NCBI GenBank assembly: GCA_965207615.1
Contig: CBDBMZ010000003.1
Coordinates: 1,257,994-1,321,993, forward strand
Length of the DNA: 64,000 nt
Reading direction: 5' to 3'
DNA from: Vicinamibacterales bacterium
GTDB lineage: Bacteria > Acidobacteriota > Vicinamibacteria > Vicinamibacterales > UBA8438
This document shows positions 1 through 16,065 of this stretch, one piece after another. The translations under genes were made by a program, and so were the position numbers. The notes below the pieces were generated by a model. The model was given only the letters and a program-made list of their open reading frames with translations. It made no database searches and was not told the DNA's origin. The number at the start of each line of letters is the position of its first letter. Within the stretch, counting starts at the first letter, position 1.

Positions 1-2987
1 CGCACCCCCGCGCGGCGCTCCGCTTCCTCCTCGGAGTAGCCCCGGTCGACGAGCGCGGTCCGCGTCGCGAGGTAGTGGCGGCGGACGTAGTTCTCGGCCT
101 CCTCGAGCACCTTCACCCGCTGCACCGCCTCGTCCATCAGCCGGGTGACGTTGTTGAACATCCCCTCGGCGGCCGACGCGATGACGATGTCGACGCGCGG
201 GCGCCCGAGCTCGCGCGCGGGGACGACCTCGACGTCGACGACGTTGCCGCGCGCGTCCCACACCGGGCGCGTGCCGAGGAGGTGGAAGATCTGCGACTCG
301 AGGATCCCCTCGTGGCGCAGCGTCTCGGCCCCCCAGATGACGAACGAGACCTTCTCGGGATAGCGCCCGTGCTCGGCGACGTGGTCCCTCAGCATCCGCT
401 CCGCGAGGAAGACGCCGAGGTCCCACGCGGCCGGTTTGGGCACCTTGTCGGGATCGATGCCGTAGAAGTTCTTGCCGGTGGGATAGGCGTCGGGGCTGCG
501 GATGGGCTCGCCCCCGCCGCCCGCCGGCACGTAGCCGCCGTCGAGGGCGTGCAGGAGATGGTCGAGCTCGCGCGGCCCCGACTCGACGATGCGGCGCTCC
601 ATGTCCTCGGCCATCACCCCGGCGTCGTCCGGCAGCAGGTCGCGGTCGACCGACACGATGGCCTCCACGGTGCTCGCGCGCATCTCCGGCTCGGGGGTGC
701 GGCCGAAGGCGTGCAACCCGTAGGGAATGTGCTGGTCCCGCAGCTCGATCACGTAGTCCTCGAGGGCGTGCAGCACGTCGTGGTCGAGCTCGGCCCCCGT
801 CCCGAGGTCGAGCCCGAGGTCCTTGACGATCCCCAGGTCGGCCGCCTGCTGCCTTATCTGGTCCGCGTACGCCTCGGCGAGCAGCTCGTTCTGGTGGACG
901 CTGCCGTGGTAGTCGTCGACGCTCTCGCCGAGCGCGGCGAGCTCGGGCAGCAGCCCGCTCTTCACGAACGGCGGCACCATGTGGTCGACGAGCGTGGCCA
1001 TGCCGCGGCGCCGCGCCACGAGGCCCTCGCCGACGACGTCGACGTTGTAGACGTAGAGGTCGGGCAGGTCGCCGATGAGCGCGTCCGGGGCGTCGGCCTC
1101 GGACAGCCCCGTGTCCTTGCCGTCGAGCCACTCCAGGGTGCCGTGCGTGCCGAGGTGGACAACGGCGTCGGCGCCGAACCCCACCGGCTCCGGCGCGCGC
1201 AGCCACGAGTAGGTCGCGACGTACTGGTGATGCGGCGCGAGGTCGTCGGCGTGGTACAGCGTCTCCTGGTCCTCGCCCCAACCGCGGGCCGGCTGCGGCA
1301 GCACCACGACGTTGCCGTACCGCAGGGCGGGAATGATCAGGCTGCCGTCCCGGGCCATGAGGGTCGCGTCCTCGGGGCGGCCCCAGTCGGCGACGACCTT
1401 CTCGCGCAGCTCGGGCGCGTAGGCGTCCAGCCACTGCAGGTAGTCGCCCATCCACGCGCGCGCCGCGCCGCCGTGCGACAGCATCTCGTCGAGCTCGCCG
1501 GGGGCGTAGCCGCCCACGTTGCGCGCCCGGGTCGTGATGCGCTCGAGGAGGGCGTCGGCGGAGAGGTCCGCGTCGTCCGATCCGAGGTGGTAGCCGTCGG
1601 CCCGCATGCGCTGGAGGATGTTGGCCAGCGACTCGGCCACGTTCAGGTAGCTGGCGCCGATGCCCGCCTTCCCCGGCGGGTAGTTGTAGTAGAGGACGGC
1701 CACGCGCTTCTCGGCGTTGGGCGTCGCGGCCAGCGCCGCGTAGCGCAGCGCGCGGCGCACCGCCGTCGTCACGCGGGAGCCGATGGGCTGGCCGGCCACG
1801 ATGGTGAGGCCGGTGTCAGCATCGGTGCGGCGCTCCTTGCTGCCGACGACGGTGGGCGCCACCAGCCCCGCCAGCTCGGGGACCGCGACCTGGAACGTCC
1901 CCTCGAACATCGACAGGCCCCGCGGCGAGGCGCGCCACTCGGCCTCGCTCCGGCCGTAGAGGCCGATCAGGCTGATGACCGGGATGTCGAGGTTGCGGAG
2001 CGGCCCGCCCGCCTCCGGGCCCGCGAAGCGGAACACGAACGCGAGGGCCACGTCCGCCCGCGCCGCGCCCGCGGGGTCGAGGAGCAGCGCCTCGAAGGCG
2101 ATGGCGGCGGGATAGCCGAAGACCGGGATGGCCTCGGCGCCCTGCCGCTCGATCTCGGCGATGACGGCGTCGAGGATCGCGGTGTCGCCCGCGTAGTACT
2201 GCGACCTGTAGAACCCGACGGCCACGCGCGCGGCCCCCGGCCGGAGCTTGCCGGCGGCGCGGCGCCACGCGTCGAACGCGTCCCAGGTTGCGAAGGCGCG
2301 CCCCGCCCCGCCGTCCGGGTAGTAGTAGCCGGCCTCGAGGCTCGGCTGCGGATCGGGGACCGTCAGCCCGGCGACGCCCGCCGCCGACAGCGCCTGCTTG
2401 AGCAGGCCGACCTGGTTCTCGAACCCCTGGTGGGCCCAGAACGCGCGCGCGCGTTCGTTCCACGCCACGCCGCGCTCGACGTAGTGCTCGCGCGGCAGCA
2501 GTCCTTCCCCGACGCCGAGCACCAGCCCCCGGCCCGTGACGTGCTCCACGAGATCGACGCCGCGCTCGGCCTCGAAGCGCTCCAGCATCTGCTGGTTCAT
2601 GACGTCGAGGACGAGCACGTCGGTCTCGAGGAGGGCGTCGACGTCGGCGTCGTCGAAGAGCGACTCGGTGAGGAACTCGACCGCGACGCGGCCCCGCAGG
2701 TCGGGGCGCTCGCCGAGGAGGGCCTGGTACGCGCCGAGGGTGCCGGACAGGTTGCCGTCGGAGAACAGGTAGGTGACGCGCGCCTCCTGGGCTCTCGCCG
2801 CAGAGGCGGCGAGCACGAACGACACGACGAGCGCGGCGCCGGCACGGGCCCACGCTGCGCGTCCCGGGGCCGCGCGTCGTCCGACCTGCGCCGCCCGGCC
2901 GGCGACGCCGTGGCGCCCGGCCGCCGCCCTCGGCCTCCGGCTTCCCGTCCCGGTCACCCGCTCGCTGGTCACACCCATGGGCGTCAT
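1..2987 (-). CDS. CobN/Mg-chelatase H family protein (HmuS/BtuS-like) with N-terminal signal/TM segment; 3' end runs off the window
   Basis: Manual minus-strand translation (absent from the ORF track; the + ORF 75..3053 is its antisense shadow) gives VHLGTHGTLEWLDGKDTGL...YVYNVDVVGEGLVARRRG..LVDHMVPP, PTGKNFYGIDP and RPRVDIVI, all CobN motifs. N-terminus ...AALVVSFVLAASAARAQE looks like a signal peptide. ATG at 2987 (alternative 2978). Confidence 0.9.
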   Translation of the reverse strand, partial: MTPMGVTSERVTGTGSRRPRAAAGRHGVAGRAAQVGRRAAPGRAAWARAGAALVVSFVLAASAARAQEARVTYLFSDGNLSGTLGAYQALLGERPDLRGRVAVEFLTESLFDDADVDALLETDVLVLDVMNQQMLERFEAERGVDLVEHVTGRGLVLGVGEGLLPREHYVERGVAWNERARAFWAHQGFENQVGLLKQALSAAGVAGLTVPDPQPSLEAGYYYPDGGAGRAFATWDAFDAWRRAAGKLRPGAARVAVGFYRSQYYAGDTAILDAVIAEIERQGAEAIPVFGYPAAIAFEALLLDPAGAARADVALAFVFRFAGPEAGGPLRNLDIPVISLIGLYGRSEAEWRASPRGLSMFEGTFQVAVPELAGLVAPTVVGSKERRTDADTGLTIVAGQPIGSRVTTAVRRALRYAALAATPNAEKRVAVLYYNYPPGKAGIGASYLNVAESLANILQRMRADGYHLGSDDADLSADALLERITTRARNVGGYAPGELDEMLSHGGAARAWMGDYLQWLDAYAPELREKVVADWGRPEDATLMARDGSLIIPALRYGNVVVLPQPARGWGEDQETLYHADDLAPHHQYVATYSWLRAPEPVGFGADAVVHLGTHGTLEWLDGKDTGLSEADAPDALIGDLPDLYVYNVDVVGEGLVARRRGMATLVDHMVPPFVKSGLLPELAALGESVDDYHGSVHQNELLAEAYADQIRQQAADLGIVKDLGLDLGTGAELDHDVLHALEDYVIELRDQHIPYGLHAFGRTPEPEMRASTVEAIVSVDRDLLPDDAGVMAEDMERRIVESGPRELDHLLHALDGGYVPAGGGGEPIRSPDAYPTGKNFYGIDPDKVPKPAAWDLGVFLAERMLRDHVAEHGRYPEKVSFVIWGAETLRHEGILESQIFHLLGTRPVWDARGNVVDVEVVPARELGRPRVDIVIASAAEGMFNNVTRLMDEAVQRVKVLEEAENYVRRHYLATRTALVDRGYSEEEAERRAGV

Positions 2988-3037
2988 CTCCGTCCTTGGT
3001 CCGGCGTGCGTCGGTTCCGCGCCCGGACGTCCGTACG

Positions 3038-3370
3038 TCAGTCGGGCACGTAGACGACCTGCCCGTCGGCGAGGCGATAGGCGGTACCGAGGCGCTCGCC
3101 CTGCCCGCCGAGCGTCTCGCCGGTCAGCTCGTAGGCGGTGATCTCGGTGCCCCGCTTGACGATGATCTCGCTCAGGCCGTCGGCGTTCGTCTTGACCAGC
3201 GTGACCTCGCTGTCCGGATCGACGAGGTCGCCGATGCGGTAGACCGAGAAGAGCGTGATCATCAAGCCGACGATGAACACCACCGATACGTCGAAGATGT
3301 TCGCGACCCCCGCGAGGGGATCCTCGTCCTCGGCGTCAGCCGGCGACGGCAGATGCAGAAAGCGTCCCAT
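3038..3370 (-). CDS. DUF2149 family protein (HmuV-like)
   Basis: EDEDPLAGVANIFDVSVVFIVGL and GERLGTAYRLADGQVVYVP are typical DUF2149 motifs; usual neighbour of CobN-like genes. Confidence 0.9.
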   Translation of the reverse strand: MGRFLHLPSPADAEDEDPLAGVANIFDVSVVFIVGLMITLFSVYRIGDLVDPDSEVTLVKTNADGLSEIIVKRGTEITAYELTGETLGGQGERLGTAYRLADGQVVYVPD

Positions 3371-4037
3371 CGTGTCGTTCCTCCGCCGCGAGTTCCTCCG
3401 CCGCCGTGCCGCCGGGCACGTCGCGCCTCAGCTCGCCCGCGAGCCGCTCCGCCAGGTACCGCTGCTCGCGCACCGCCTCGTTGACCCAGCCGTGTCGGAC
3501 CACCTGGATGACATAGGCGACGGTCCCGGCCGAGAGGCCCACGATGGTCGTGGTGAACGCCACCACCATCTGGCCCGCCATCGCCTCGAGGTTCCCGGCG
3601 GTCAGCGAGGCGAGCGCCGTCCCCATCGGAATGAGGGTGCCGAGCAGGCCGAGGCTCGGCCCCACCTTGACGAGCAGCCGCGACCCGTTCAGGGTGCGCC
3701 TCACCCGCTCCTCGCGCTCGAGGACCAGATGCTCGAGACCGCCGTCGCCGAACGACGGCTTCAGGCGTTCCGCCTCGACGTCCCGCAGCAGGCCCCGCAG
3801 GGCCGCCGGCAACGCCGCCCTCCGCGCGGAGTCCGAGCCGAGCACCGGGCCGGCGTCGAGCCACCCGTTGAGGTCGAAGCGGCCGCGCTCCTGCCGGCGG
3901 GCGAGCCATTCCATCAAGCACCCGCCGGCCATGAACACCGCGGCGCCGACCGCCGCCCACAGGAGCACGATGACGGGAAAGCGCAATACCTGGGCCAGCG
4001 CGAACAGGCCGTTCTCGAGCGTGCCGAGCAGATTCAC
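3336..4037 (-). CDS. MotA/TolQ/ExbB proton channel family protein (HmuU-like)
   Basis: KVGPSLGLLGTLIPM...MVVAFTTTIVGL. GTG start at 4037 overlaps the upstream stop (GTGA). Confidence 0.88.
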   Translation of the reverse strand: MNLLGTLENGLFALAQVLRFPVIVLLWAAVGAAVFMAGGCLMEWLARRQERGRFDLNGWLDAGPVLGSDSARRAALPAALRGLLRDVEAERLKPSFGDGGLEHLVLEREERVRRTLNGSRLLVKVGPSLGLLGTLIPMGTALASLTAGNLEAMAGQMVVAFTTTIVGLSAGTVAYVIQVVRHGWVNEAVREQRYLAERLAGELRRDVPGGTAAEELAAEERHDGTLSASAVAG

Positions 4038-4606
4038 CGCCGCCTCCGGAGCGTATGCAGTCCACCGAGCGAGACCATCGCCGCGACCCCCACGACGACC
4101 CAGGGATGGACGCCCGGCCGGACGAGGCCGTCCGTTTCGAGATTCATCGCCGCCGCCGCGCGCCACCCCGCGGTCACCGCCGGCGCCGCCGCGACGGCCA
4201 GGCCGAGCGCACCGATTGCGGCCAGCGCGTCGTCGCGGAGCGCCGGCGGGGCGAACCCCGGGTCGCGCCGCGACGACGACGCCGCGACGGCGAGGACCGC
4301 GGCCACCGCCAGCCACGCCGCCCACGCCGGCAGGCCGTAGCCGGCCAGCACCCGGGTCCAGAGGCCGCCGGCCAGCCCCGCCACCAGCGACGCGGGCAAC
4401 GACGCCGTCACGCCGTGCGGACGGGCCAGCGACAGCCCCGCCGCGGCGGCGACGAGCACGCCGATCCACCGTGCCTCCGGCTGGAACCAGAAGGCGCCGA
4501 GCGCGAAGCCGCCCGCGAGAGCGAGAACACCGCGACGCTCCCTCGCCGCGGTGGCGAGGGTCGCGCAAGCCAGCGCGCACAGCAGGCCGACGGCGTGCAG
4601 CAGCAA
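4034..4606 (-). CDS. Multi-pass membrane protein (occupies the HmuT position)
   Basis: About 6 hydrophobic segments; translationally coupled to the ExbB-like gene. Start uncertain (TTG 4606 chosen; ORF open to 4690). Confidence 0.7.
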   Translation of the reverse strand: MLLHAVGLLCALACATLATAARERRGVLALAGGFALGAFWFQPEARWIGVLVAAAAGLSLARPHGVTASLPASLVAGLAGGLWTRVLAGYGLPAWAAWLAVAAVLAVAASSSRRDPGFAPPALRDDALAAIGALGLAVAAAPAVTAGWRAAAAMNLETDGLVRPGVHPWVVVGVAAMVSLGGLHTLRRRR

Positions 4607-4695
4607 TCTGATGTCCCCCGCGATCCGAGTCTCGGCCCGCCTCCGCACCACATTAGAGCACCATGCCCGGAACGGCGGCGGCGCCCGCACAGGAA

Positions 4696-4774
4696 CTTCA
4701 GGAATTCTTAAGGATTCCTCAAGGCCACAGCGGATCCGCGGGCTGACTTCAGGAACTCTTCAGAAATTCTTCAG
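4696..4774. promoter_or_regulatory. Two triplets of 11-bp-period direct repeats (CTT[C/A]AG-N5), probable OmpR/PhoB-family response regulator boxes
   Basis: CTTCAG(4696)-gaatt-CTTAAG(4707)-gattc-CTCAAG(4718) and CTTCAG(4747)-gaact-CTTCAG(4758)-aaatt-CTTCAG(4769). TATACT at 4798-4803, 23 nt downstream. Confidence 0.7.
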
Positions 4775-4982
4775 ACCCCGACGCAAAACGCGCTCACTAT
4801 ACTCCACTCCACGTCAATCGTCGGACCTCTCCGCGCACGGCTCGACGACACCCGTTGCCCAGGACCGCGGCCCGTCCCGTCGTCAGACGGATTCGTGGGC
4901 TCGGCCGCGGGTCGCCGGTGTAGTCCGTGTGCGTGTCGTCGATCCATGCGGGGTCGACCAGGCAAGGAAGGACCAGGTCATC

Positions 4983-7343
4983 ATGACGCGGTATCGCGCC
5001 CTGCTCGGCATCTTGCTCTGCGCGCTGGCCATTGCGCCGGCCGCCGCCCAGGAACCCCTGACGGTGAGCGGAACCGTCACCGACTCGTCAGGCGGCGTCC
5101 TCCCGGGGGTGACCGTCGAGGCGCAGCGCGGGCTTCGCGTGGTGGCGACCGCGGCCACCGGGAACGACGGGGCGTACCGCTTGGACCTGGCCGAGGCCGG
5201 CCGCTACCGGGTGACGGCCCACCTGGACGGCTTCGCGGCCGGCGACGCGGACGTAGCCGCCGCCGGTGCGGCGACCGCCGACTTCCGCCTCGACATCGCC
5301 CCCGTCCGGGACACCGTCGTCGTCACCGCCTCCCGCACCGCCGAGAGCGCCGCGTCGGTCACCGAGTCGCACTCGGTCTTCACCGCCGACGACATCGAGA
5401 CCCTCGGCAGCCACTCGGTCGCCGACGTCCTGCGCTACGTGCCCGGCCTCAACGTCGAGTCGACGGGCCGCGAGGGCGCTCTCGCCTCCGTCTTCGCCCG
5501 CGGCGGCGAGTCCGACTACAACCATGTCCTCATCGACGGCGTGCGGGTCAACGACAACGGCGGCTATTTCGACTTCGACAAGGTCTCCGCCGCCGAGATC
5601 GACCGCGTCGAGGTCGTGCGCGGCGCCCAGTCGGCCCTCTACGGCTCCGACGCCATCGGCTCCGTCATCCAGATATTCACCAAGCGAGGAACTCCCGACA
5701 GCGGCCCACGGTTGTCCGGCAATTTCGAGGGCGGCTCGTTCGGCACCACCCGCGGCGACCTGCGCGTCCTCGGCGGCGCCGCCGGCCGCGTCGACTACCA
5801 GCTCGGCGTCGCCCACCGCGCGACCGACGGCGCGTTCCAGGACCGGCTCCTCGAGCCCGACCGCTTCGACCAGCAGTCCATCGACGGCAACCTCGGCGCC
5901 ATCCTCGGAGACAGCACCCGCCTGCGCGGCGGCTTCCGCTACAGCAACCGCCGCGGCAGCTCCGTCGGCAACATCACCTACGCCCGGGGCGACACCGGCG
6001 GCGGCTACGACACCGACGATCTGACCTGGCACGTCGACTTCGACCAGACCCTCTCCTCGCGCTTCGACCATTCCGCGACGGTGAGCCACTTCCGGTCCGG
6101 ACGCCTGTCGATGGACAGCGTCGGCGACCCCCAGTACCGCGTCTTCGCCCTCCTCGAGGGCGAGCCCGGCGCCCTCTACCCGGCCGGCCCGCGCCTCGTG
6201 CGGCTCCTCGACGAGCCCGCCTTCGACGCCCTCATGGCCGACCCGTCGGGCCTTGGGGCCGGCCAGTTCCTCGCCCGCACCGGCCCCTACAGCGGATTCG
6301 ACTATCCCTTCGAGTTCGAGAGCCAGTTGCGCCGGCCCGCCGTCCGCTACCAGGCCAACGCAACCTGGCTCGACGACCAGGTCTTCAGCGCCGGCTACGA
6401 CTACTTCAGCGAGACCAACGCCCTCGACACCCAGCAGGCGGTGGAGAACCACTCCTACTTCCTGCAGCAGCAGTTCAACGTGGCCGACGCGTGGTTCGTC
6501 ACCAGCGGGGCGCGCATCGACAACAACTCCCTCTACGGCGCCGCCGTCAATCCCAAGCTGTCCGCCGGCGGCTACCCCCTGCCTTATCGCGCGGGCGCCC
6601 TCTCGTCGGTCAAGGTGTCGGCCAACGTGGGGCGCGGCATCAAGAACCCGACCTTCTCCCAGCTCTACGGCTCGCAGTGGGTCGACGGCGACCTGTTGCT
6701 GCTGCCCGAGGAGGCGCTGACCGTCGACGCGGGAGCCGAGCTGACCTTCGACGACCAGCGCTGGCTGGCGAGCTTCACCTGGTTCAGCAACGACTACGAG
6801 AACCAGATCGCCTACTCGCCCTCGCTCGGCTTCGGGGGCGACGGCGTCCCCGACTACGTCAACATCGACGGGTCGCGGGCGGACGGGGTCGAGATGGAGT
6901 TCGCCATGCAGCGGCCCCTCGGCGGGGTGACGGCCAGCGCCTCCTACGCCCTGGTGGACACCGAGGTCGTGACCAACGCGAGCACCAGCGAGCAGTTCCA
7001 GCCGGGCCAGCCGCTGCTGCGCCGGCCCCGGCACTCGGCCAACCTGCGCCTCGGCTACACGCAGGGACGCGGCAGCCTGCACCTGTCCATGCGGGTGACC
7101 GGCGACCGTCACGACAGCGCGTTCCTCGGTCTGCAGCGTGCCTCGGACGGCCGCGGAGTGGACATCACCGTCAACCCCGGCTACACGCTGGTCACCGCCG
7201 GCGGTCAGTTCCGGGTGAGCCCCGAGCTGGCCCTGTTCCTGCGCATCGACAACCTGACGGACGTGGTGTACGACAGCGCGCTCGGATACCCGGGCCTGCC
7301 CCGCGCGTTCGTGGCCGGGGGCCGCTTCAACTTCGGCGGCTGA
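4983..7343 (+). CDS. TonB-dependent receptor (BtuB/heme-receptor-like) with N-terminal carboxypeptidase regulatory-like domain
   Basis: Signal peptide; VSGTVTDSSGGVLPGVTV domain; DTVVVTASR; plug motif IDRVEVVRGAQSALYGSDAIGSVIQIFTK; C-terminal LRIDNLTD...GGRFNF. Confidence 0.93.
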   Translation: MTRYRALLGILLCALAIAPAAAQEPLTVSGTVTDSSGGVLPGVTVEAQRGLRVVATAATGNDGAYRLDLAEAGRYRVTAHLDGFAAGDADVAAAGAATADFRLDIAPVRDTVVVTASRTAESAASVTESHSVFTADDIETLGSHSVADVLRYVPGLNVESTGREGALASVFARGGESDYNHVLIDGVRVNDNGGYFDFDKVSAAEIDRVEVVRGAQSALYGSDAIGSVIQIFTKRGTPDSGPRLSGNFEGGSFGTTRGDLRVLGGAAGRVDYQLGVAHRATDGAFQDRLLEPDRFDQQSIDGNLGAILGDSTRLRGGFRYSNRRGSSVGNITYARGDTGGGYDTDDLTWHVDFDQTLSSRFDHSATVSHFRSGRLSMDSVGDPQYRVFALLEGEPGALYPAGPRLVRLLDEPAFDALMADPSGLGAGQFLARTGPYSGFDYPFEFESQLRRPAVRYQANATWLDDQVFSAGYDYFSETNALDTQQAVENHSYFLQQQFNVADAWFVTSGARIDNNSLYGAAVNPKLSAGGYPLPYRAGALSSVKVSANVGRGIKNPTFSQLYGSQWVDGDLLLLPEEALTVDAGAELTFDDQRWLASFTWFSNDYENQIAYSPSLGFGGDGVPDYVNIDGSRADGVEMEFAMQRPLGGVTASASYALVDTEVVTNASTSEQFQPGQPLLRRPRHSANLRLGYTQGRGSLHLSMRVTGDRHDSAFLGLQRASDGRGVDITVNPGYTLVTAGGQFRVSPELALFLRIDNLTDVVYDSALGYPGLPRAFVAGGRFNFGG

Positions 7344-7411
7344 CGCGCTCGCCTCGGGCGGACCCCGGGGCCGGTCGCGCGCGGCTTCGCGCTGGAGGGA
7401 GCTGAATCGGC

Positions 7412-8602
7412 GTGAGTCTGCTGGACCGTTCGGGACCGTTGCGGCGCGCACTGTTCCAGGTCCACCTGTGGACCGGCGTGGCGATCGCGCTCTACGTCGT
7501 CGTCGTCTCGGTCACCGGCGCCGCCCTCGTCTTCCGCATCCACCTGCAGCGGGCCGCGCACCCGGCGTTGCTGACGGCCGCCACCGACGGTCCGCAGGCG
7601 GACATCGCGACGGTGCTCGAGAACGTACGCGACGCGTACCCGGGCGGCCGCGTGGCCGGGGTCGACGCGCCGACCACGGTGCGGCCGACCCACCTCGCCT
7701 ACGTCACCGAGGGCGGCCGGTTCCGTACCGTGCTCATCGACCCGGTCACCGCCGAGGTGCTGGGCGAGCTGCCCGAGCGCTCGGTGGTGCGCACCCTGCA
7801 GGACCTGCACTTCGACCTCCTCGCCGGCTCCACCGGCCGCGTCGTCAACGGCATCGGCGCGCTCTGCCTGCTGCTGCTCTGCCTGACCGGCGTGTTCGTC
7901 TGGTGGCCGGAACGGTCGGGGTGGCGGCGCGCCCTGAGCGTCGACTGGCGCCGCCCCTGGCGGCGCGTCACGTGGGAGCTGCACGGCGCGGTGGGCGTCT
8001 GGACGCTCGTCCTCACCGCCGGCTGGGCCGTCACCGGGGCGTACTTCGTGTTTCCCGACGAGTTCCGCGCCGCGGTGAACCGCATCTCCCCGCTGACCGC
8101 CCCCGTCCGCCCGCCGCAGTCGAATCCCGACGGCGCCGCGTCCGAAGCGCGCCCCACTTGGCGAGAGCTCATCGACCGGGCCCGCCCGGCCGAGCCGGGC
8201 GCGTTCGTCGCAAGAGTCGTGGTGCCGGCCGGCGACGAGGCGCCGTTCCAGGTGCTGTTCACCGACCACCGTCCGAGCCGGCTCGGCGCGCGCCACTTGC
8301 GGACGGTCTACCTCGACCAGTACACGGGCGAGCGGCTCGCCGCGCCGCCGGCGGGGCGGCGCACCCTCGGCGACGTCGTCATCGCCCTCGTCGGCCCCGT
8401 GCACTTCGGCAACTTCGGCGGCGTGGGCGTCCGCCTGGTGTGGCTCGTGATCGGCCTCGCGCCCGCCGTGCTGGGCGTCACGGGCCTCCTCCTGTGGTGG
8501 ACGCGCGTCCTTGCGCCGGCGTGGCGCCGGCGCAAGGAGGCCGGATCCACGCCCCGGCCGCCGGCGCAGGTCGTGCCGGTGCCGGATGACATGAGCACCT
8601 GA
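7412..8602 (+). CDS. PepSY-associated TM helix protein (iron-regulated inner membrane protein)
   Basis: LFQVHLWTGV, LQDLHFDLL, LTGVFVWWP, WELHGAVG and VHFGNFGG: conserved His-bearing TM helices. Confidence 0.9.
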   Translation: MSLLDRSGPLRRALFQVHLWTGVAIALYVVVVSVTGAALVFRIHLQRAAHPALLTAATDGPQADIATVLENVRDAYPGGRVAGVDAPTTVRPTHLAYVTEGGRFRTVLIDPVTAEVLGELPERSVVRTLQDLHFDLLAGSTGRVVNGIGALCLLLLCLTGVFVWWPERSGWRRALSVDWRRPWRRVTWELHGAVGVWTLVLTAGWAVTGAYFVFPDEFRAAVNRISPLTAPVRPPQSNPDGAASEARPTWRELIDRARPAEPGAFVARVVVPAGDEAPFQVLFTDHRPSRLGARHLRTVYLDQYTGERLAAPPAGRRTLGDVVIALVGPVHFGNFGGVGVRLVWLVIGLAPAVLGVTGLLLWWTRVLAPAWRRRKEAGSTPRPPAQVVPVPDDMST

Positions 8603-8860
8603 GAAGCCCATGGCCCGAACGCAGGAACCCGAGACGGACCGCGTGCTCACCGACGCGGAGCGCCGGCACCTGCTGCGGCGCCTCGCCTTCGCGGCGACAC
8701 CGGCGCTGGAGGAAGTGGTGCCGGCGCCGGCTGACACGAGCACCTGAGAGCCCCATGACCCGAGCCCAGGAACCCGAGTCGGACCGCGTGCTCACCGACG
8801 CGGAGCGCCGGCACCTGCTGCGGCGCCTCGCGTTCGCGGCGACGCCAGCGCTGGAGGAAG
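8570..8860 (+). repeat. Diverged 145-bp tandem duplication spanning the PepSY stop and DUF1800 start
   Basis: Starts ATGGCCCGAACGCAGGAACCCGAG (8610) and ATGACCCGAGCCCAGGAACCCGAG (8755) lie 145 bp apart. Both copies contain gaccgcgtgctcaccgacgcggagcgccggcacctgctgcggcgcctcgc. Confidence 0.92.
8610..8747 (+). CDS. 45-aa chimeric mini-ORF created by the duplication (DUF1800 N-terminus + PepSY C-terminus)
   Basis: MARTQEPETDRVLTDAERRHLLRRLAFAATPALEE-VVPAPADTST*; expression unknown. Confidence 0.4.
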   Translation: MARTQEPETDRVLTDAERRHLLRRLAFAATPALEEVVPAPADTST

Positions 8861-10239
8861 CCGTGCGCGGGCGGTCGGCCGACGACGCCGTCGCGGTCCT
8901 CGTGCGCGCGGCCCGCGACACGCCCCATCCCGAGCGCCCCGAAGCGGCCCGCGGCGTGTGGCGCAACCCCGGCCTGCGGTTCGCCGGCGTCTCCGACGAG
9001 GACTTCGAGGCGATGCTCGATCGACAGGCGCCCGGCGTGCGCGCCGCCGTCGACGACGTGCGCCGGTGGTGGCTGGCCGAGCTGCTCACCTCCCCGGCAC
9101 CGCTGCGGGAGAACCTGGTGCTCTTCCTGCACGGGGTCTTCGGCAGCAGCACCCGCCCGGTCGACGCCCCCCACGCCCTCCACGCGCGCAACGCCCTGCT
9201 GCGCCGGCGGTGCCTCGGCACCGTCCCGGACCTCCTCGCGGCCCTCGTCGTCGACCCCGCCATGATGATCCAGATCGGCATGGACGGGCACCGGCGGCTG
9301 CGCGTGTCCGACCGCGCGGCCAAGCTCGTCCTCGACCACTGGACGGTCGGCGAGGGGGCCTACGGGCCGCGCGACCTCGAGGAGCTGTCGAGGGCGCTGA
9401 CGGGCTGGCGGCTCGTCGCCCCCGAGGGGCGCGGGCCGGCCCGCGAGATCGCCCGCCGGGCGCCGCGGGCGGCGCAGCGCACCGGCCTCGTGCCGACGTT
9501 CCGCCCCGCGGACTTCGACGACGGCCCGAAGACCATTCTCGGCCGCACCCGCCCGTTCGACGCGCGCTCGGCGGTGCGGTGGCTGGCCGCGCAGGACGCG
9601 ACGGGCCGTCGCTTCGGCCGTCTGCTGCTGGCCCACCTCGGCGTCGAGGACGGCGGCGGGGCCCTCGAGGCGCGGCTCGCCGCCGTCTACGGGGCGACCG
9701 GCGGGTCCATCGAGGCGCTGCTCCGCGAGGTCGTGCGTTCCGAGGCGTTCTGGTCCGAGGCCTCGCGCTGGACGTTGATCAAGAGCCCCGTCCACCTCGC
9801 GGCGGGCGCCTGCCGCCAGCTCGGCATCGCGTCGCCGCCGGTGGCGGATATCGCGCGCTGGCTCGAGGCGAGCGGCCAGACCCTGTTCGACACCCCGAAC
9901 AACGGCGAGGGGGGCTGGCCGGGTCGGGAGGCCTGGGTGTCGCCCCCGTCGCGCCTGACCGTCCGGTACCATCTCGCCGCCGCCCTCGGGGGTCGGCTGC
10001 CGCCCCTCGGCCTCGAACGCCCCGATCCGTCCGGCCGCGAAACGGCCGGCGCGCCCGACGTCCCGCTCGACGCGACGCTCCGCGAAGCGTCGCCGTCGGA
10101 ACTGCTCTCGCGGCTCGACCCGGCCCCGGGGCTGGACGCGGCGGCGATCGAGCGAGCGGTGTCCGGCGCCGCGTCGCCGGAAGGCCGCAGCACGTTCATC
10201 CAACGCGTGATGATGTCCCCCGAGTATCAACTGGCGTGA
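8755..10239 (+). CDS. DUF1800 family protein (divergent)
   Basis: RHLLRRLAF, PLRENLVLFLHGVF, SRALTGW, LIKSPVH, GQTLFDTPN..GWPG and MMSPEYQL; followed by DUF1501 as usual. Confidence 0.85.
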   Translation: MTRAQEPESDRVLTDAERRHLLRRLAFAATPALEEAVRGRSADDAVAVLVRAARDTPHPERPEAARGVWRNPGLRFAGVSDEDFEAMLDRQAPGVRAAVDDVRRWWLAELLTSPAPLRENLVLFLHGVFGSSTRPVDAPHALHARNALLRRRCLGTVPDLLAALVVDPAMMIQIGMDGHRRLRVSDRAAKLVLDHWTVGEGAYGPRDLEELSRALTGWRLVAPEGRGPAREIARRAPRAAQRTGLVPTFRPADFDDGPKTILGRTRPFDARSAVRWLAAQDATGRRFGRLLLAHLGVEDGGGALEARLAAVYGATGGSIEALLREVVRSEAFWSEASRWTLIKSPVHLAAGACRQLGIASPPVADIARWLEASGQTLFDTPNNGEGGWPGREAWVSPPSRLTVRYHLAAALGGRLPPLGLERPDPSGRETAGAPDVPLDATLREASPSELLSRLDPAPGLDAAAIERAVSGAASPEGRSTFIQRVMMSPEYQLA

Positions 10240-10260
10240 GCGCCAGCCTGGAGGAGACCG

Positions 10261-11505
10261 ATGAACACCATCAGCCGACGCGACCTGTTGACCTGGTTCG
10301 CCCTGACGCCTACGGTTCCGTTCTTCGTCCGCGAGAGCGCGCGGGCGGCGGCCGCGGGGACGCAGGCGGCCGACGGCGGCGGGGCGGCCGGCCACGACGG
10401 GCGCGTGGTCGTCGTCCTGCGGCTGCGGGGCGGCAACGACGGACTGAACACGGTGGTGCCGGTGCGCGACGACCGCTACTACCGGGCGCGCCCGACCATC
10501 GCCATCCCCCGGCAGGACACCATTCCCCTCGACGGGACCGACCTCGGCCTCAACCCGTGGCTCGGCGAGGTGCGCCGGCTGATGGACGACGGCCACGCCG
10601 GCATCGTGCAGGGCGTGGGCTACCCGCGCTCGTCCCGGTCGCACGCGCGGGCGACCGAGATCTGGGAGACGGGCTCGGTGGCCCCCGAGGCGCCGCGCCA
10701 CGGCTGGCTCGGCCGCTATCTCGACCACGCCTGCGAGTGCGGCGACGAGCCGCTGGCCGGCGTGCAGTTCGACGAGACGCTCGGCCGCACCCTGGCCTCG
10801 GCCTCGGGCCGCAGCGCGTCGATCGGCCACCCCGAGCTGCTGCTCGGAATGGACGCCGCCCCGCCGCCGGCCGTCGCCGCGCGCGGCCCGCGCGCCGGCC
10901 GGCTCGACTATCTCAGGCAGGTCGACAACCGCCTCGCCCAGGCCGCGCGTCAGCTCCACCGCGCGCGGGCCGGCACCGGCGGCGGCTTCGACTACCCCGA
11001 CAGCGCCTTCGGCCAGTCGCTGCGGTGGACCGGCGACATGATCGAGACGGGCAGCCCGACCCGCGTCTACTACGTGTCCCTCGGCTCGTTCGACGGCCCC
11101 GACCCGGCCTCGTTCGACACCCACGTCGACCAGCCCGCGAAGCACCGGGTCCTCTTCACCGAGCTCGGGCGCGGCCTGCGCGCCTTCACGCGCCACCTGC
11201 GCCGGGCCGGGCAGCTCGACCGCGTGCTCCTGCTGACGTTCTCCGACTTCGGCCGCCTCGTCACCGAGAACCAGACCGGCGGCACCGAGCACGGCGACGC
11301 CGGGGTGCTCTTCGTGGCCGGCGGCGGCGTGCGGGCGGGTCTGCTCGGCGAGCCGGCCGACCTCGGCAAAGTCACCCGCGGCGGCCTCGACGCCACCGTC
11401 GACTTCCGCGACATCTACGCCGACGTGCTGCAGCGGTGGCTCGGCGTCGACCCGGCGGCGATCCTCGGCCCCGCGGTCGGCTCGTTCCCCGTCGTGAGCG
11501 CGTGA
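10261..11505 (+). CDS. DUF1501 domain protein with Tat signal
   Basis: ISRRDLL Tat motif; LRGGNDGLNTVVP, SRSH, FDTH, FSDFGR, GTEHG, VDFRDIYA. Confidence 0.9.
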   Translation: MNTISRRDLLTWFALTPTVPFFVRESARAAAAGTQAADGGGAAGHDGRVVVVLRLRGGNDGLNTVVPVRDDRYYRARPTIAIPRQDTIPLDGTDLGLNPWLGEVRRLMDDGHAGIVQGVGYPRSSRSHARATEIWETGSVAPEAPRHGWLGRYLDHACECGDEPLAGVQFDETLGRTLASASGRSASIGHPELLLGMDAAPPPAVAARGPRAGRLDYLRQVDNRLAQAARQLHRARAGTGGGFDYPDSAFGQSLRWTGDMIETGSPTRVYYVSLGSFDGPDPASFDTHVDQPAKHRVLFTELGRGLRAFTRHLRRAGQLDRVLLLTFSDFGRLVTENQTGGTEHGDAGVLFVAGGGVRAGLLGEPADLGKVTRGGLDATVDFRDIYADVLQRWLGVDPAAILGPAVGSFPVVSA

Positions 11506-11519
11506 ACCAGGAGATCCCG

Positions 11520-11948
11520 ATGCGCAAGACGCTTCCCGGACTGACCCTCGCGACGTTGCTGCTGTGCCTCGCATCGCCGATGGCGCAGGAGGCCGACCAG
11601 GACGACCTGCAGACGCTACAGGGCGAATGGACCGTGGCCGCGGCCGAGCAGGGCGGCCGGCCGTTCGACGTCATCGTCGGCGGCGTCCTCACCATCACCG
11701 GCGACCGCTTCGCGCTGGTCACCGCCACCGGCAACGAGCTCGCCGGGCAGATACGGCTCGACGCGGCGCCGTCGCCCCGCCACCTCGACTTCGTGCACGA
11801 CGACGGGCTTCTGTGGGAGGCGATCTACGTCGCCGCGCCGGATTTCTTCCGGCTCAACTACGTCGAGGCGAGCCCCGAGACGCCGCGGCCGACGATGTTC
11901 GTCACCGGGTCGGACGCGCCGGGCACGGTCATCGTCATGGAACGCTGA
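11520..11948 (+). CDS. Secreted TIGR03067-like domain protein
   Basis: Signal peptide followed by DDLQTLQGEWTVAAAEQGG...LDAAPSPRHLDF...AIY...RPTMF. Confidence 0.75.
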   Translation: MRKTLPGLTLATLLLCLASPMAQEADQDDLQTLQGEWTVAAAEQGGRPFDVIVGGVLTITGDRFALVTATGNELAGQIRLDAAPSPRHLDFVHDDGLLWEAIYVAAPDFFRLNYVEASPETPRPTMFVTGSDAPGTVIVMER

Positions 11949-11977
11949 CGGCCTCGGGCGCGGTGCGGCACGGGGCC

Positions 11978-13258
11978 TCACCCCATTGGCTCCAACCTGG
12001 TCCTAGTCGGAGGCCGCGGGAACGGCGGGCCGTACGTGGCTCGCCGCCAGATCCACTCCACGGGGCCCTGGGCGCGTCGTGCCAGCCACCAGCGGCACAC
12101 GCGCTGCTGCGCGACGAGGATCGCGAGCGCCACGAGGGGGAGCGTCGCGATGGGCAGCCGGCCGGCCAGGCCCGCGCCGTGCGACGAGAAGAGCAGCAAC
12201 TGGACGACGGTCTGCGACAGGTAGACGCTCAGCGCCATCCGGCCCAGCGGCACGAACCATGCGAGCCGCGCCCGCCATGCCTGCTCCCAGGCGAGCGAGA
12301 CCAGTGCCATGTAGGCGAGCGCGAGGGGTGTCGTTCCGAGCGTGTAGGCGGCCGTCTGGCCGAGTCCCACGGCAGACAGCGCGAATGTCGATCGCGCCTC
12401 GGTCTTGATCGCCGCGTACACGGCGCTGGCCAGCAGCCCGACCGCGCCGCCCATCCACACGGTGCGCCAGAGCGCGCGTCGCGAGGTCGAGAGCCGCGGC
12501 AGCACCGTCGCGGCCAGCCAGGCCCCGAGCACGAACAGCGCGAGCACCTTGGCCGGCCGCCCGGCTTGCATGTACGTGCCCGGCCGCACGACGGCGTAGG
12601 CCGTGTTCCACGCCCAGTAGTCCGAGGAGGACCCGTGCGCGAAGAGATCGAGCGTCGTCCTGCCAGCGATGCCGAGCCCTTCCCGCACGGTCGCGCCCAG
12701 GGCGGCGAACGGCGCGCGCGGGTCGAGGGCGCCGCCCGAGAGCCACACCACGAGGTGGGTGGCGAGCGGCACCGCGAAGAGGACCGCCATCGCGCCGAGA
12801 CGCCAGCGCGGGGACCAGCGCCACAGCGACGGCAGCAGCAGGCCCATCACCCCGTAGAGCAGCAGGATGTCTCCGGCCCACAGCGCGTACATGTGCGTGA
12901 GCCCGATGAGCATCAGCACGGCCATGCGCCGGTGGAAGAACGGCCCGACATCGTGCCCGCGCGCTCCGGCCCGCGCCGCCTGCAGCGCGAAGCCGATGCC
13001 GAACAGAATCGAGAAGACCGAGTAGAACTTGCCTTCGACGAGCCAGTCGACGCCGAAGAGCACGGCCTGCCCCACGGCCGCGGCCGGCTGCGCCGCGCGA
13101 CCGGCCGCGTCGAGCATGTTGGCCCCGAAGAAGCTGGTGAGATTCGCGAGCAGAATGCCGCCGAGCGCCATGCCGCGAATGGCGTCGAGCAAGGGGAGGC
13201 GTTCGCCCGCGGTCGTCGGACCGACGACGGCGGATCCGGAGGAGGCGGCCGGCAGCAT
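11978..13258 (-). CDS. DUF418 family membrane protein (YeiB-like)
   Basis: RLPLLDAIRGMALGGILLAN, GKFYSVFSILFGIGF, GDILLLYG, GRMALSVYLSQT, QGPVEWIWR. Confidence 0.9.
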   Translation of the reverse strand: MLPAASSGSAVVGPTTAGERLPLLDAIRGMALGGILLANLTSFFGANMLDAAGRAAQPAAAVGQAVLFGVDWLVEGKFYSVFSILFGIGFALQAARAGARGHDVGPFFHRRMAVLMLIGLTHMYALWAGDILLLYGVMGLLLPSLWRWSPRWRLGAMAVLFAVPLATHLVVWLSGGALDPRAPFAALGATVREGLGIAGRTTLDLFAHGSSSDYWAWNTAYAVVRPGTYMQAGRPAKVLALFVLGAWLAATVLPRLSTSRRALWRTVWMGGAVGLLASAVYAAIKTEARSTFALSAVGLGQTAAYTLGTTPLALAYMALVSLAWEQAWRARLAWFVPLGRMALSVYLSQTVVQLLLFSSHGAGLAGRLPIATLPLVALAILVAQQRVCRWWLARRAQGPVEWIWRRATYGPPFPRPPTRTRLEPMG

Positions 13259-13267
13259 CTCCCCGGG

Positions 13268-14449
<1,182 letters not shown>

Positions 14450-14523
14450 CTCGCGGATGTGCGTCCATCCCCGGCGCGACCGGCTTCCAGCGGATGCGGT
14501 GGACAGGCCGCCGCCCTGCGCGG

Positions 14524-14568
14524 ATCGTAGCCCCTGCCGCCCGGCGGCATCCTGAAGATTTGCTGAAG
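14524..14568 (-). promoter_or_regulatory. CTTCAG-N5-CTTCAG box plus -10 upstream of the MbnH-like gene
   Basis: Minus strand CTTCAG(14568-14563)-caaat-CTTCAG(14557-14552), then TACGAT (14529-14524) 22 nt downstream; same geometry as the TBDR promoter. Confidence 0.65.
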
Positions 14569-14599
14569 TCGGTCTGGCCGAACTCGGCGTACGACAGCA

Positions 14600-14789
14600 C
14601 CCACGGCACCGAGGAAGACGGCGAGGTCCAACAGGTCGTAGACCCGCGCATCGGAAGCGCGCGGCGAAATGAGCGTGGTCTTGCCGGTTTGCCGGGGGCC
14701 GAGCGGAAAGTGGGACTTCCGGGCAGCAGGGCGAGCAGGTTCAGCGCGCGACCGATGATGGGCCTGTCGACACGGTCGTCACCTGTCAT
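14600..14789 (-). pseudogene. Frameshifted 5' remnant of an AAA+ ATPase (AAA_14/DUF4143 type)
   Basis: IGRALNLLALL / frameshift / RKSHFPLGPRQTGKTTLIS...ARVYDLLDLAVFL; Walker A intact, rest of gene absent. Confidence 0.7.
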
Positions 14790-14864
14790 GACATATGACG
14801 ACAACGCCGACTCGACCCATCGGGCCGATGGCATGCGAGAGCGGTCGACCGAGTCGATTCCCCG

Positions 14865-15944
14865 TCATCGCGGATCCGGGCCGGGCCGGCCGTACACCGC
14901 CCCCAGCCTGCGAACGAAGACCTCACGCTCGAAGCCGCGCGGGGCATCGACGCGATGCCCCGGCCCAATGCGGAGGGCCCTGGCGAGCCCGTCGACGTCG
15001 CCCCAGGGCGCGAGCAGGTCGCCACCGGGGTGCCACTCGCGCACCCCGCCGCTGTCCCACGCGGCGACCGGCGTGCCGAGGGTCAGGGCCTCCAGGCCCA
15101 CGATGCCGAACGGCTCCTGCCAGCGCGAGGGCATGACGAGGACGGCGGCGCGGCGGTAGGCGGCAGAGAGGCGCCGGCGGTCGAGCCAGCCCAGCACCTC
15201 GACACCCTCCGCCTCGATCTCGCGGCGCAAGGGGCCGGTGCCGGCCACGACGAAGGGCAGGCGCGAGCCCGAGCGTCGCCAGGCTTCGATCGCATCGCGA
15301 ATGCCCTTGGCCTCGACCACCCGCCCCGCGAAGAGGACGCAGGGTGGACCGTCGGCCCGCGCGCCGAAGTCGAGGCCGTGGGCGACGGGGGGAACGACGG
15401 TGATCCGATCCGCCGGGACCCCCACCCGGGTCAGCTCCCGCTTCATGTAGGACGACAGCACGGTCAACCGCAGGCGTTTCACCGACTCCAGCCGCTGCGC
15501 GGTGAGCTCGAGGGTGTCCTCGAAGTACGCTGGGTCGTCGAAGCAGCCGGCGCACACCTCGCGTCCCATCGGGTCGCCGCACACCCGACCGTCGGAGGTC
15601 CACTTGCCCCGTCCCGGACAGAAGAAGCGGTGGTCCTGGACCGTCATCACCGCATCCACGCCGACCGCCCAGGCCAGCACCTCGGGGTTGACCACGTTGT
15701 GGACGTGCACCAGGTCGGGGCGGAACCCGGCCAGCAGGGGGTCGAGATCGGCGTCGGCACGTATCCTGGCGTCGAGCCGCGGTACGACCGTCACCGGACA
15801 GGGCGGGCGCACCGCGCCGTCGTCGCGGCCCACGGCGAGGTGCATGCGGTGACGGCCGTCCGACAGGGCGCCGAGAAGGCCGAGCAGAGCGAGGTCGGCG
15901 CCTCCGCGGTCACTCAGCCGATCCGCGACGTGGAGAATCCGCAT
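14865..15944 (-). CDS. Glycosyltransferase family 4 protein
   Basis: MRILHVAD..GGAD, PDLVHVHN, FAGRVVEAKG, PSRWQEPFGIVGLEA. Confidence 0.92.
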   Translation of the reverse strand: MRILHVADRLSDRGGADLALLGLLGALSDGRHRMHLAVGRDDGAVRPPCPVTVVPRLDARIRADADLDPLLAGFRPDLVHVHNVVNPEVLAWAVGVDAVMTVQDHRFFCPGRGKWTSDGRVCGDPMGREVCAGCFDDPAYFEDTLELTAQRLESVKRLRLTVLSSYMKRELTRVGVPADRITVVPPVAHGLDFGARADGPPCVLFAGRVVEAKGIRDAIEAWRRSGSRLPFVVAGTGPLRREIEAEGVEVLGWLDRRRLSAAYRRAAVLVMPSRWQEPFGIVGLEALTLGTPVAAWDSGGVREWHPGGDLLAPWGDVDGLARALRIGPGHRVDAPRGFEREVFVRRLGAVYGRPGPDPR

Positions 15945-16065
15945 CGCCGCTGCCGCTCGACGAGGTCCAAGTCGGACCGGCCCTTCCTTCTTCAACCACG
16001 GAACCGGCGTCGAGCCGGCGAGACAGGCGCGGATCGATCCCGTTGCAGAGGCCGAGGAGCGGCGT

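Follow-up and report, generated by a model that had tools for sequence, protein, structure and literature searches.

The left end of a 64,000-nucleotide stretch of the genome of a Vicinamibacterales bacterium (the window; positions 1257994–1321993 of contig CBDBMZ010000003.1, hereafter C3, in a 7.08-Mb genome that is 98.4% complete) carries three transcription units arranged around the gene for a CobN-like protein, P0001. Operon 1 codes for a membrane protein, an ExbB-like protein, a DUF2149 protein, P0001 and a protein modelled as a beta-propeller; the divergent operon 2 codes for a TonB-dependent receptor (TBDR) and for PepSY_TM, DUF1800, DUF1501 and TIGR03067 proteins; and operon 3 codes for a di-haem enzyme of the MbnH family and a DUF418 protein. 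These units may be read as one uptake regulon under two-component control with a BtuS-type (non-HmuS) periplasmic CobN-like core, whose substrate would more likely be of the corrinoid/cobalt type (possibly zinc) than haem, and we put the probability of this reading at about 0.45. The more general mechanism, in which import and periplasmic reduction are followed by the removal or exchange of the metal by an anchored CobN relative, is considered probable from homology and conserved context. A metal-bound macrocycle or chelate would be drawn in through the TonB receptor, the metal would be reduced at the periplasmic face by the PepSY_TM protein, and the CobN-like enzyme at the inner membrane, beside an ExbB/ExbD-like channel, would then remove or exchange it. 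An OmpR-type response regulator and its kinase would act through a CTTMAG operator bound by this pair, and the DUF1800, DUF1501, TIGR03067, MbnH and DUF418 proteins would be lineage-specific periplasmic accessories of the uptake and reductase side, rather than processing the freed ring as the first-pass annotation had proposed.

Genes were called in the high-G+C window (69–77%) by third-position GC content (GC3) together with Pfam and NCBIfam family searches. These searches bore out the gene content of the first-pass annotation, while its gene order was slightly off, operon 1 being transcribed in the order membrane protein, ExbB, DUF2149, CobN. The gene for P0001 occupies window positions 1–2987 on the minus strand and extends 1098 bp to the left of the window, giving a predicted product of 1361 aa (PF02514, E = 7e-222). 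It opens with a signal-like stretch (...AGAALVVSFVLAASAARA/QEA) and closes with a hydrophobic stretch followed by RRRR, export being judged by eye from the sequence. The CobN-Mg_chel domain and an HxG(T/A)HG motif place it in the class I chelatase superfamily (CobN/ChlH/HmuS), and it falls under every NCBIfam CobN/BchH equivalog cutoff, the best scores being 800.2 against 1248 (NF004644) and 596.8 against 822 (TIGR02257). The signal-like N-terminus, the C-terminal anchor and the sub-cutoff scores support a predicted exported and membrane-anchored protein of the Hmu/BtuS kind, as had been proposed, and not a cytoplasmic cobaltochelatase. That P0001 might instead be the canonical cytoplasmic CobN of a cob cluster beyond the window edge is suggested by its Pfam CobN-Mg_chel match and by an Asp-Asp motif of CobN type in domain V; with the CobNST cobaltochelatase it shares the Pfam family, this motif and a score against M. 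tuberculosis CobN equal to that against HmuS. We regard this as extremely unlikely. Beyond the left edge the gene ends after 1098 bp, its stop overlapping the start of a conserved gene for a 412-aa exported protein (the propeller), and after a further gap of 425 bp a CarboxypepD_reg receptor-like gene follows; no cob cluster lies there. As the first-pass annotation had stated for the part it saw, no gene of the CobS/T or BchI/D type was present among the open reading frames (ORFs) scanned between 20 kb left of the window and position 16000, a scan that did not take in every ORF. P0001 further differs from CobNST in its predicted export and anchoring, in its scores under the CobN cutoffs and in belonging to a genome without a corrin pathway, in which no CbiC was found.

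A search of the PDB with P0001 returned HmuS (471.3 bits) and M. tuberculosis CobN (470.9 bits) as a tie. P0001 contains the motifs HLGTHG and LDNDDFFMYMGG. These were compared with 70 related loci from public genomes (53–97% identity), for which the counts of accompanying genes were made by tblastn with the window proteins and are lower bounds, since many loci end at contig edges. H-x-GTHG was retained in all 63 loci spanning that stretch and LDNDD..MY.GG in 68 of 68. The HmuS family is defined by a Met-rich insert in domain IV, by LSLDHxxEFMGG (His-1209, Glu-1212) and by Met-79/His-254 (PMC12583661). In P0001 the LSLDHxxEFMGG site reads ALDNDDFFMYMGG, with Asp for His and Met for Glu, domain V thus carrying LDNDDFFMYMGG in its place; the Asp is shared with the two CobN structures, and HmuS and ChlH have His there. 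The Met-rich insert is not present in P0001, HmuS residues 698–925 standing opposite query residues 778–798 in the phmmer alignment. As the alignment begins at query residue 349 and HmuS residue 283, the head/neck region (Met-79, His-254 HGR) is not alignable and lies outside the comparison. The HmuS signature, HFGTHG together with ALSLDHVYEFMGG, is found in the two further CobN paralogs that this genome encodes. Judged by these motifs, the genome encodes two enzymes of the HmuS type besides P0001, which represents a second type, and this argues for different substrates. All three homologs lie among TBDR, ExbB and DUF2149 genes. The HmuS-type paralogs are encoded on one strand at G000:C3:8720–29376 (L103, L104), together with a TonB receptor, MacB/FtsX, two beta-propeller proteins, an ExbB-like protein, DUF2149 and a GDSL lipase; this cluster is kept in most genomes of the genus, and no riboswitch was found in it.

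The remaining genes of operon 1 invite comparison with HmuYRSTUV of Bacteroidota, in which a large CobN-superfamily protein with N- and C-terminal anchors likewise adjoins a membrane protein, a MotA/ExbB-like protein, DUF2149 and a TonB receptor (PMC12583661). All lie on the minus strand. The DUF2149 protein (3038–3370; PF09919, 97.2 bits) has one transmembrane segment and a soluble domain in an ExbD-like topology and is the counterpart of HmuV and PA1925. It is preceded by a MotA/TolQ/ExbB-like proton-channel protein (3336–4037; PF01618, E = 6e-11), the start of which is approximate, with a GC3 frame switch near 4040, and by a polytopic membrane protein of about four hydrophobic segments in the HmuT position (4034–4690; GC3 0.86 frame, start uncertain). 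The latter had no match in Pfam or NCBIfam, and its homologs occur upstream of ExbB in 25 locus groups obtained by ORF clustering. The match to hmuSTUV put forward in the first-pass annotation holds for the T/U/V-like genes and the receptor and breaks down at the HmuS-defining motifs, absent from P0001 and present in the two paralogs. HmuY was not recognised near the locus, where no HmuY-specific search was made, and the gene order differs from hmuYRSTUV. The locus also differs from Hmu in its extra propeller gene, its PepSY_TM gene, its probable two-component control and its host, a high-GC, soil-type member of the Acidobacteriota.

With regard to the substrate, a cobalamin riboswitch was identified with Rfam in eight of the 41 loci covered by the scan, out of 70 (L058, L059, L060, L067, L069, L075, L085 and L098). 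Directly downstream of each is the receptor of the cassette or a long gene occupying the receptor's place, and in four (L058, L085, L060, L098) the CobN-like gene follows on the same strand. The receptor of the window (4983–7343, plus strand; Pfam CarboxypepD_reg, Plug and barrel), whose plug is most like BtuB/Cir, has TonB-B12 (TIGR01779) as its best NCBIfam match, at 213.5 bits and under the cutoff of 599.7, and E. coli BtuB as its best PDB match (90.6 bits). The riboswitches, the motif of CobN type, the resemblance of the receptor to BtuB and the existence of separate HmuS-type paralogs lead us to rank a corrinoid/cobalt-type substrate first, ahead of haem/iron, zinc and copper in that order. 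Co(III) and Fe(III) are inert, so the requirement for a reductase fits removal of the metal better than its insertion. In the 98.4%-complete genome CbiC and CobS (PF02654) were not found, the CobS/CobT chelatase subunits not having been searched for genome-wide; CobQ and CobD are present, which makes an odd partial salvage set.

The core would be of the BtuS type, to which it was likened by context and not by the BtuS1/2 sequences: both comprise an exported CobN-like protein in a TonB-receptor locus outside cob/bch clusters, and the present clade is associated with cobalamin riboswitches and predicted to act on imported metallated macrocycles, not in B12 synthesis. BtuS has been quoted, after Rodionov 2003, as a third CobN type with a predicted role in metalloporphyrin salvage, and B. 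fragilis BtuS1/2 are described as exported and as affecting the use of haem iron, BtuS2 being encoded in an hmu-like operon (PMC6460266). A bolder proposal is that the clade forms an unrecognised class of periplasmic corrinoid/cobalt (de)chelatases, with a CobN-type metal site and without AAA+ partners, which would take electrons from PepSY_TM, perhaps with an ExbB-like/DUF2149 proton channel, and remove or insert cobalt outside the cytoplasm. This is speculative, and on present evidence it seems rather unlikely.

That the three units belong together is suggested by a repeat in their upstream regions. The first-pass annotation had seen the same repeat motif in both regions, and it proved to be a phased direct repeat, CTTMAG-N5-CTTMAG. 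A motif scan placed it at 4696, 4747 and 4758 on the plus strand and at 14552 on the minus strand. In the divergent promoter region (4696–4779, plus strand) the operator consists of two triplets of CTTMAG-type hexamers in 11-bp phase, triplet A reading nearly alike on both strands; the copy at 14552–14568 (minus strand) has two hexamers, is oriented with the MbnH gene and lies 108 bp upstream of it. The four window matches to the strict motif compare with 0.00 expected, and none of 100 shuffles contained any match. Across the 7.08-Mb genome the strict motif has eight matches in four places only, namely the two window sites and two sites at C3:4.000 Mb, 2.7 Mb away. At the latter, three 41-bp motif units precede a siderophore-type receptor (236.1 against a cutoff of 223.5), and a hexamer pair precedes a 582-aa PepSY-like protein. 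Divergent from this receptor is a cobalamin riboswitch of 56.8 bits (L002 8001–8135, minus strand, equal to G000:C3:4000001–4000135), which is followed by btuF-like, FecCD, ABC-ATPase and cobQ genes. The operator is conserved at the orthologous site in 13 genomes (L024–L030, L039, L040, L074, L079, L084, L086), these being seven loci of the genus that keep the divergent pair and six more distant loci of Vicinamibacterales, and a copy also lies upstream of the MbnH ortholog of genome G004 (L024 18396–18412). In 82 of the 106 loci compared the motif was not found. All three units thus share one predicted operator that is conserved in relatives, and from its sequence and distribution the motif appears to mark a regulon. 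A different motif was observed upstream of the CarboxypepD_reg gene to the left of the window (L003 3190–3660, window −2810 to −2340), consisting of a 12-nt tandem repeat (GGTCTTGATCGC x2) and AACGTTG repeats.

The direct repeats, their 11-bp phase and a TAnnnT about 20 nt downstream have the geometry associated with activators of the OmpR/PhoB type, which suggests a two-component regulator. None of the ten Trans_reg_C genes in the genome lies near either operator locus. In related loci, ORF clustering of the 70 found a response regulator (Response_reg and Trans_reg_C) beside the cassette in eight and a HAMP-HisKA kinase in nine. A strict operator copy follows the kinase gene in L099, and one-mismatch versions flank the regulator/kinase pair in L042, L043 and L057. 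This genome holds a single orthologous pair, at C3:4533340–4535444 amid unrelated genes, with identities of 64–79% for the regulator and 51–69% for the kinase; the regulator gene itself spans C3:4534710–4535444. The best NCBIfam match of the regulator was the heavy-metal response-regulator subfamily (227.5 against a cutoff of 279.2) and its PDB matches were generic OmpR-family proteins; the kinase had no PDB or NCBIfam match. This orphan OmpR-type pair is a candidate regulator of the CTTMAG operator.

Several observations weigh against a corrinoid/cobalt regulon. As the HmuS and CobN scores of P0001 are the same, the proposed CobN-like active site depends on one motif, and the direction of the reaction (removal or insertion) is inferred, as is the substrate. 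No Rfam match at E ≤ 1 was obtained in window positions 1–16000, including the 200-nt 5' region of the receptor, and a riboswitch was present in none of the nine Vicinamibacteria-labelled loci scanned, so that the cobalamin link comes from Proteobacteria and one Thermoanaerobaculia locus. An organism unable to make corrin also has little obvious need for cobalt. The link between regulator and operator is comparative only; the periplasmic domain of the kinase has no conserved His, Cys or Met, and the ExxE of the copy in this genome is not conserved. The receptor of the co-regulated second locus passes the siderophore-receptor model, which fits iron. A scan of the 70 loci for Fur and Zur sites with 19-mer consensus boxes gave convincing sites in three loci only, the remaining rows having five mismatches and resembling chance matches; it placed a Zur-like palindrome in the divergent promoter of L061, another in L073 between a Fur-family gene and the CobN-like gene, and a near-perfect Fur box (two mismatches) before the PepSY_TM gene of L094; none of the Zur-like palindromes was found in the close-relative loci L033–L041. 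Finally, MbnH and pairs of TBDR and PepSY proteins are also known from copper uptake (PMC12914433, PMC13038864).

Some of these observations point to haem-iron acquisition by an aerobic counterpart of Hmu, in which a haem or iron macrocycle would be imported, Fe(III) reduced by PepSY_TM and Fe(II) released by the CobN-like protein as by HmuS. The latter is the only exported CobN relative with biochemical proof, and it shares with P0001 the two-anchor topology and the T/U/V-like neighbours (PMC12583661). The inclusion in the regulon of a siderophore-type receptor and a PepSY protein, the Fur box of L094 and the ferric reductase activity of the known PepSY_TM proteins agree with this. Haem nevertheless seems an unlikely substrate, as P0001 lacks the Met-rich insert and the LSLDHxxEFMGG that mark HmuS, with the motif present in two paralogs of the same genome, does not align to HmuS in the head/neck region, and has relatives accompanied by cobalamin riboswitches in 8 of 41 cases.

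The Zur-like sites bring up the uptake of a zinc (or mixed zinc/cobalt) chelate, with the CobN-like protein taking the metal from an imported metallophore. The comparison here is with PA1922–PA1925 of P. aeruginosa, which code for a TBDR, a CobN-like protein, an ExbD-family protein and DUF2149, belong to the Zur regulon, are induced by zinc starvation and 45- to 147-fold in a znuA mutant, and for which a rise in cell cobalt was noted (PMC4542158, PMC9431628, PMC11761036). The likeness of this set to the window genes (TBDR, CobN-like, ExbB/D-family and DUF2149) was drawn from its published composition, not from the PA1923 sequence. Control differs, being by Zur there and here by a direct-repeat operator with a probable OmpR-type regulator, and in the operon descriptions available PepSY, DUF1800, DUF1501 and MbnH genes do not appear. 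The composition, the Zur regulon and the znuA-mutant induction of PA1922–PA1925, together with the palindromes of L061 and of L073, the latter by a Fur-family gene, speak for zinc; the Zur-like sites were found in only two of 70 loci when scanned with consensus boxes, and neither ZnuA, COG0523 nor another zinc-specific partner was seen near the window cassette. Zinc uptake of this kind is accordingly judged improbable as the main function.

Turning to operon 2, the receptor gene is followed on the plus strand by that of a PepSY_TM inner-membrane protein (7412–8602; PF03929, 204.6 bits), putatively a periplasm-facing haem-dependent reductase. It has four hydrophobic segments with His 18, 44, 191 and 331 near segment ends, positions read off the predicted segments rather than from an alignment with FoxB; reductases of the FoxB/CrpH type have four His residues at the membrane boundary that serve two haems. 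PepSY_TM proteins reduce ferric siderophores and probably copper, and as in the FoxA/FoxB and CrtA/CrpH pairs a TonB receptor gene is here followed by a PepSY_TM gene, which suggests periplasmic reduction of an imported metal complex. In contrast to those pairs, this one stands between the CobN-like cassette and DUF1800/DUF1501/TIGR03067 genes, and its receptor matches BtuB best. The three further genes of the operon encode a DUF1800 protein (8755–10239; PF08811, 198.6 bits) in which no signal peptide is visible in the sequence, a DUF1501 protein (10261–11505; PF07394, 92.3 bits) with a twin-arginine (Tat-like) N-terminus, SRRDLL, and a small exported TIGR03067-domain protein with a signal-like N-terminus (11520–11948; 49.8 bits against a cutoff of 40.15). 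A repeat search identified a tandem 145-nt duplication of 87% identity (8550–8839, plus strand) between the PepSY_TM and DUF1800 genes, which copies the first 39 codons of the latter; the duplicated segment C3:1266603–1266719 is 85% identical to DUF1800 residues 1–39. The duplication is recent, and relatives have about 11 nt there.

By tblastn, a PepSY_TM gene of the window type is present in 20 of the 70 loci, TIGR03067 in 13, DUF1800 in 11 and DUF1501 in 10, and the loci with DUF1800, DUF1501 or TIGR03067 come nearly all from one Vicinamibacterales clade. Orthologs of the DUF1800 protein (at least 89% identity) occur in exactly six of 21 genomes of the genus, all of which have the CobN-like ortholog, and every genome of the genus has several DUF1800 paralogs of at most 37% identity. 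Units 1 and 2 thus co-occur in other genomes, and judging from these sequences the PepSY_TM-DUF1800-DUF1501-TIGR03067 set is a lineage-specific add-on inherited as a block with the core. The wider association of CobN and DUF2149 with DUF1800 and DUF1501 that had been anticipated applies almost only to that one clade, and reaches 10–13 of 70 loci overall. A second DUF1800-DUF1501 pair (38% and 40%) lies at G000:C3:5313362–5317724; a long PepSY-type gene comes next and a receptor gene lies some 4 kb off, and no CobN is present. The presence of the DUF genes with the cassette in 10–13 of 70 loci and this second pair beside PepSY without CobN link them to PepSY/TBDR uptake and not to a ring freed by the chelatase; the DUF1800/DUF1501 pair itself goes with PepSY and receptor genes and not with the chelatase. 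In the open-access literature, papers containing both DUF1800 and DUF1501 were off-topic. A further module recurs beside the cassette (L039 15697–22478, and L040, L042–L046, L051, L057, L079 and L099), comprising genes for a cytochrome c, a 182-aa protein, two DUF6644 proteins, a protein of about 320 aa, a DUF6152 protein (mature N-terminus His-His) and a protein of about 530 aa, often with a long PepSY gene. This genome has its own copy of the cytochrome c/DUF6644/DUF6152 module at 1.80 Mb (L108 3828–8504).

Operon 3 lies on the minus strand and comprises the MbnH-family di-haem enzyme (13268–14443; TIGR04039, 400.4 bits against a cutoff of 362.85), which has a signal peptide and CxxCH at residues 72 and 236, and a polytopic DUF418 (YeiB-like) membrane protein (11978–13258; PF04235, 120.7 bits) that overlaps the MbnH stop. 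The enzyme is the sole protein in the genome above the MbnH cutoff. It resembles the enzyme of MbnH/MbnP systems in passing the MbnH model and in its two CxxCH motifs, and differs in the DUF418 gene that follows and in the lack of MbnP, for which TIGR04052 gave no match in the genome. MbnH adjoins the cassette in three of the 70 loci, one of these a remnant, and also in G004, whereas DUF418 is adjacent in none of the 70 loci and none of nine genus loci and is found at this position only in this genome. The two are consequently not the regular partners they had been taken for, and MbnH is loosely linked to the cassette. A remnant in L042 (2869–3643) consists of about 110 C-terminal codons, 74% identical, and lies between kinase and long PepSY genes, with an operator-like site directly before it, so that MbnH may have belonged to the cluster for a long time.

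A di-haem enzyme under the same operator could also indicate copper acquisition, with MbnH maturing a periplasmic copper protein, a receptor-reductase pair of the CrtA/CrpH kind and a CobN-like protein that handles a copper chelate. Copper systems of TBDR and PepSY_TM have been described (PMC12914433, PMC13038864), and the candidate regulator is nearest to the heavy-metal subfamily. Such a function is very unlikely here, given that MbnP was not found in the genome, that MbnH is rarely linked to the cassette, that no copper chaperone was seen and that the receptor is BtuB-like and not CrtA-like by best match, in a comparison that did not extend to CrtA itself.

It is also conceivable that no common pathway joins the three units, which would perform separate uptake tasks as neighbours that merely share a regulator or an insertion site. 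The limited recurrence of DUF1800, DUF1501 and TIGR03067 (10–13 of 70), MbnH (3 of 70) and DUF418 (0 of 70), the second DUF1800-DUF1501-PepSY set without CobN, and the right flank of the island, which varies within the genus, lean this way. Against it stand the shared operator, which occurs elsewhere in 7.08 Mb at one more uptake locus only and is conserved in relatives, and the co-inheritance of units 1 and 2 across the 21 genomes of the genus, and we consider it improbable.

The core, made up of the membrane protein, the ExbB-like, DUF2149 and CobN-like proteins and the propeller next to a TonB receptor, recurs across Acidobacteriota and Proteobacteria, the 70 loci deriving from Vicinamibacterales, Bryobacterales, Terriglobia, Thermoanaerobaculia, Sphingomonadales, Hyphomonas and several Gammaproteobacteria. 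ExbB and DUF2149 were detected in 58 of the 70 and the 412-aa propeller partner in 48 (tblastn); with ORF clustering, a TBDR cluster was found in 45 of 63 locus groups, and PepSY-type genes occur within 10 kb in 14 and 11 locus groups. The 412-aa partner has no match in Pfam or NCBIfam. It was modelled as a beta-propeller (pLDDT 90.6), for which only generic structural matches (CylK, sialidases) were obtained, with no functional clue, and PDB sequence searches with it and with the DUF1800 protein gave nothing useful.

Within the genus, near-full CobN-like orthologs were found in nine of 21 genomes, and a sister genus has the gene as well; 16 genomes from the order's other families yielded no CobN homolog. 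Among the nine genus loci with wide flanks both operons are intact in six, one lacks DUF1800 and half of DUF1501, and one is a deletion remnant. In the sister genus the receptor, membrane protein, ExbB, DUF2149 and CobN genes are on one strand, and the PepSY and DUF genes are not present. The island decays in some genomes of the genus: in G009 (L031 3154–8049) a deletion fuses the CobN-like protein from residue 315 onwards to the receptor from residue 444 onwards, in G022 (L032/L023) the CobN-like gene is split into two pieces with an in-frame TGA, and G001 has lost DUF1800 along with the first 260 codons of DUF1501. At L073 (9240–16061) a 54%-identical CobN-like gene occurs without ExbB or DUF2149, and genes for an ABC ATPase and a MacB/FtsX permease come after it; a full cassette (L094) is also present in that metagenome-assembled genome.

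The core is of a known kind, having been described as the BtuS third CobN type, as hmuRSTUV and as PA1922–PA1925, and the suggestion of the first-pass annotation that the combination is undescribed does not stand for it. In open-access text, the supplements of PMC12583661 being outside the scope, we found no account of HmuS-type and second-type motifs side by side in a single genome, of the propeller as a conserved partner, of the two-component operator, of an operon joining PepSY, DUF1800, DUF1501 and TIGR03067, or of an MbnH without MbnP. Many soil and marine bacteria encode exported CobN relatives, and a reaction has been proven only for the gut HmuS. A test of one motif separates the HmuS type from a second CobN-like type, both present in one genome. 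The riboswitch and Zur links suggest a role in cobalt/B12 (or zinc) metabolism, which could account for PA1922–PA1925 and for receptors under B12 control that are something other than simple importers of B12. For an otherwise unstudied phylum the locus supplies an operator together with a candidate for its regulator, and DUF1800 and DUF1501 gain a reproducible context beside PepSY_TM reductases. If a class of periplasmic cobalt (de)chelatases does exist, it would explain why whole cassettes are preceded by cobalamin riboswitches in Proteobacteria and controlled by Zur elsewhere. In that case the DUF1800/DUF1501 proteins, whose genes stand beside PepSY genes twice in this genome, would assist the reduction of metal chelates in the periplasm as an accessory exported by Tat, and B12 auxotrophs such as this acidobacterium could recondition the corrinoids that they scavenge.

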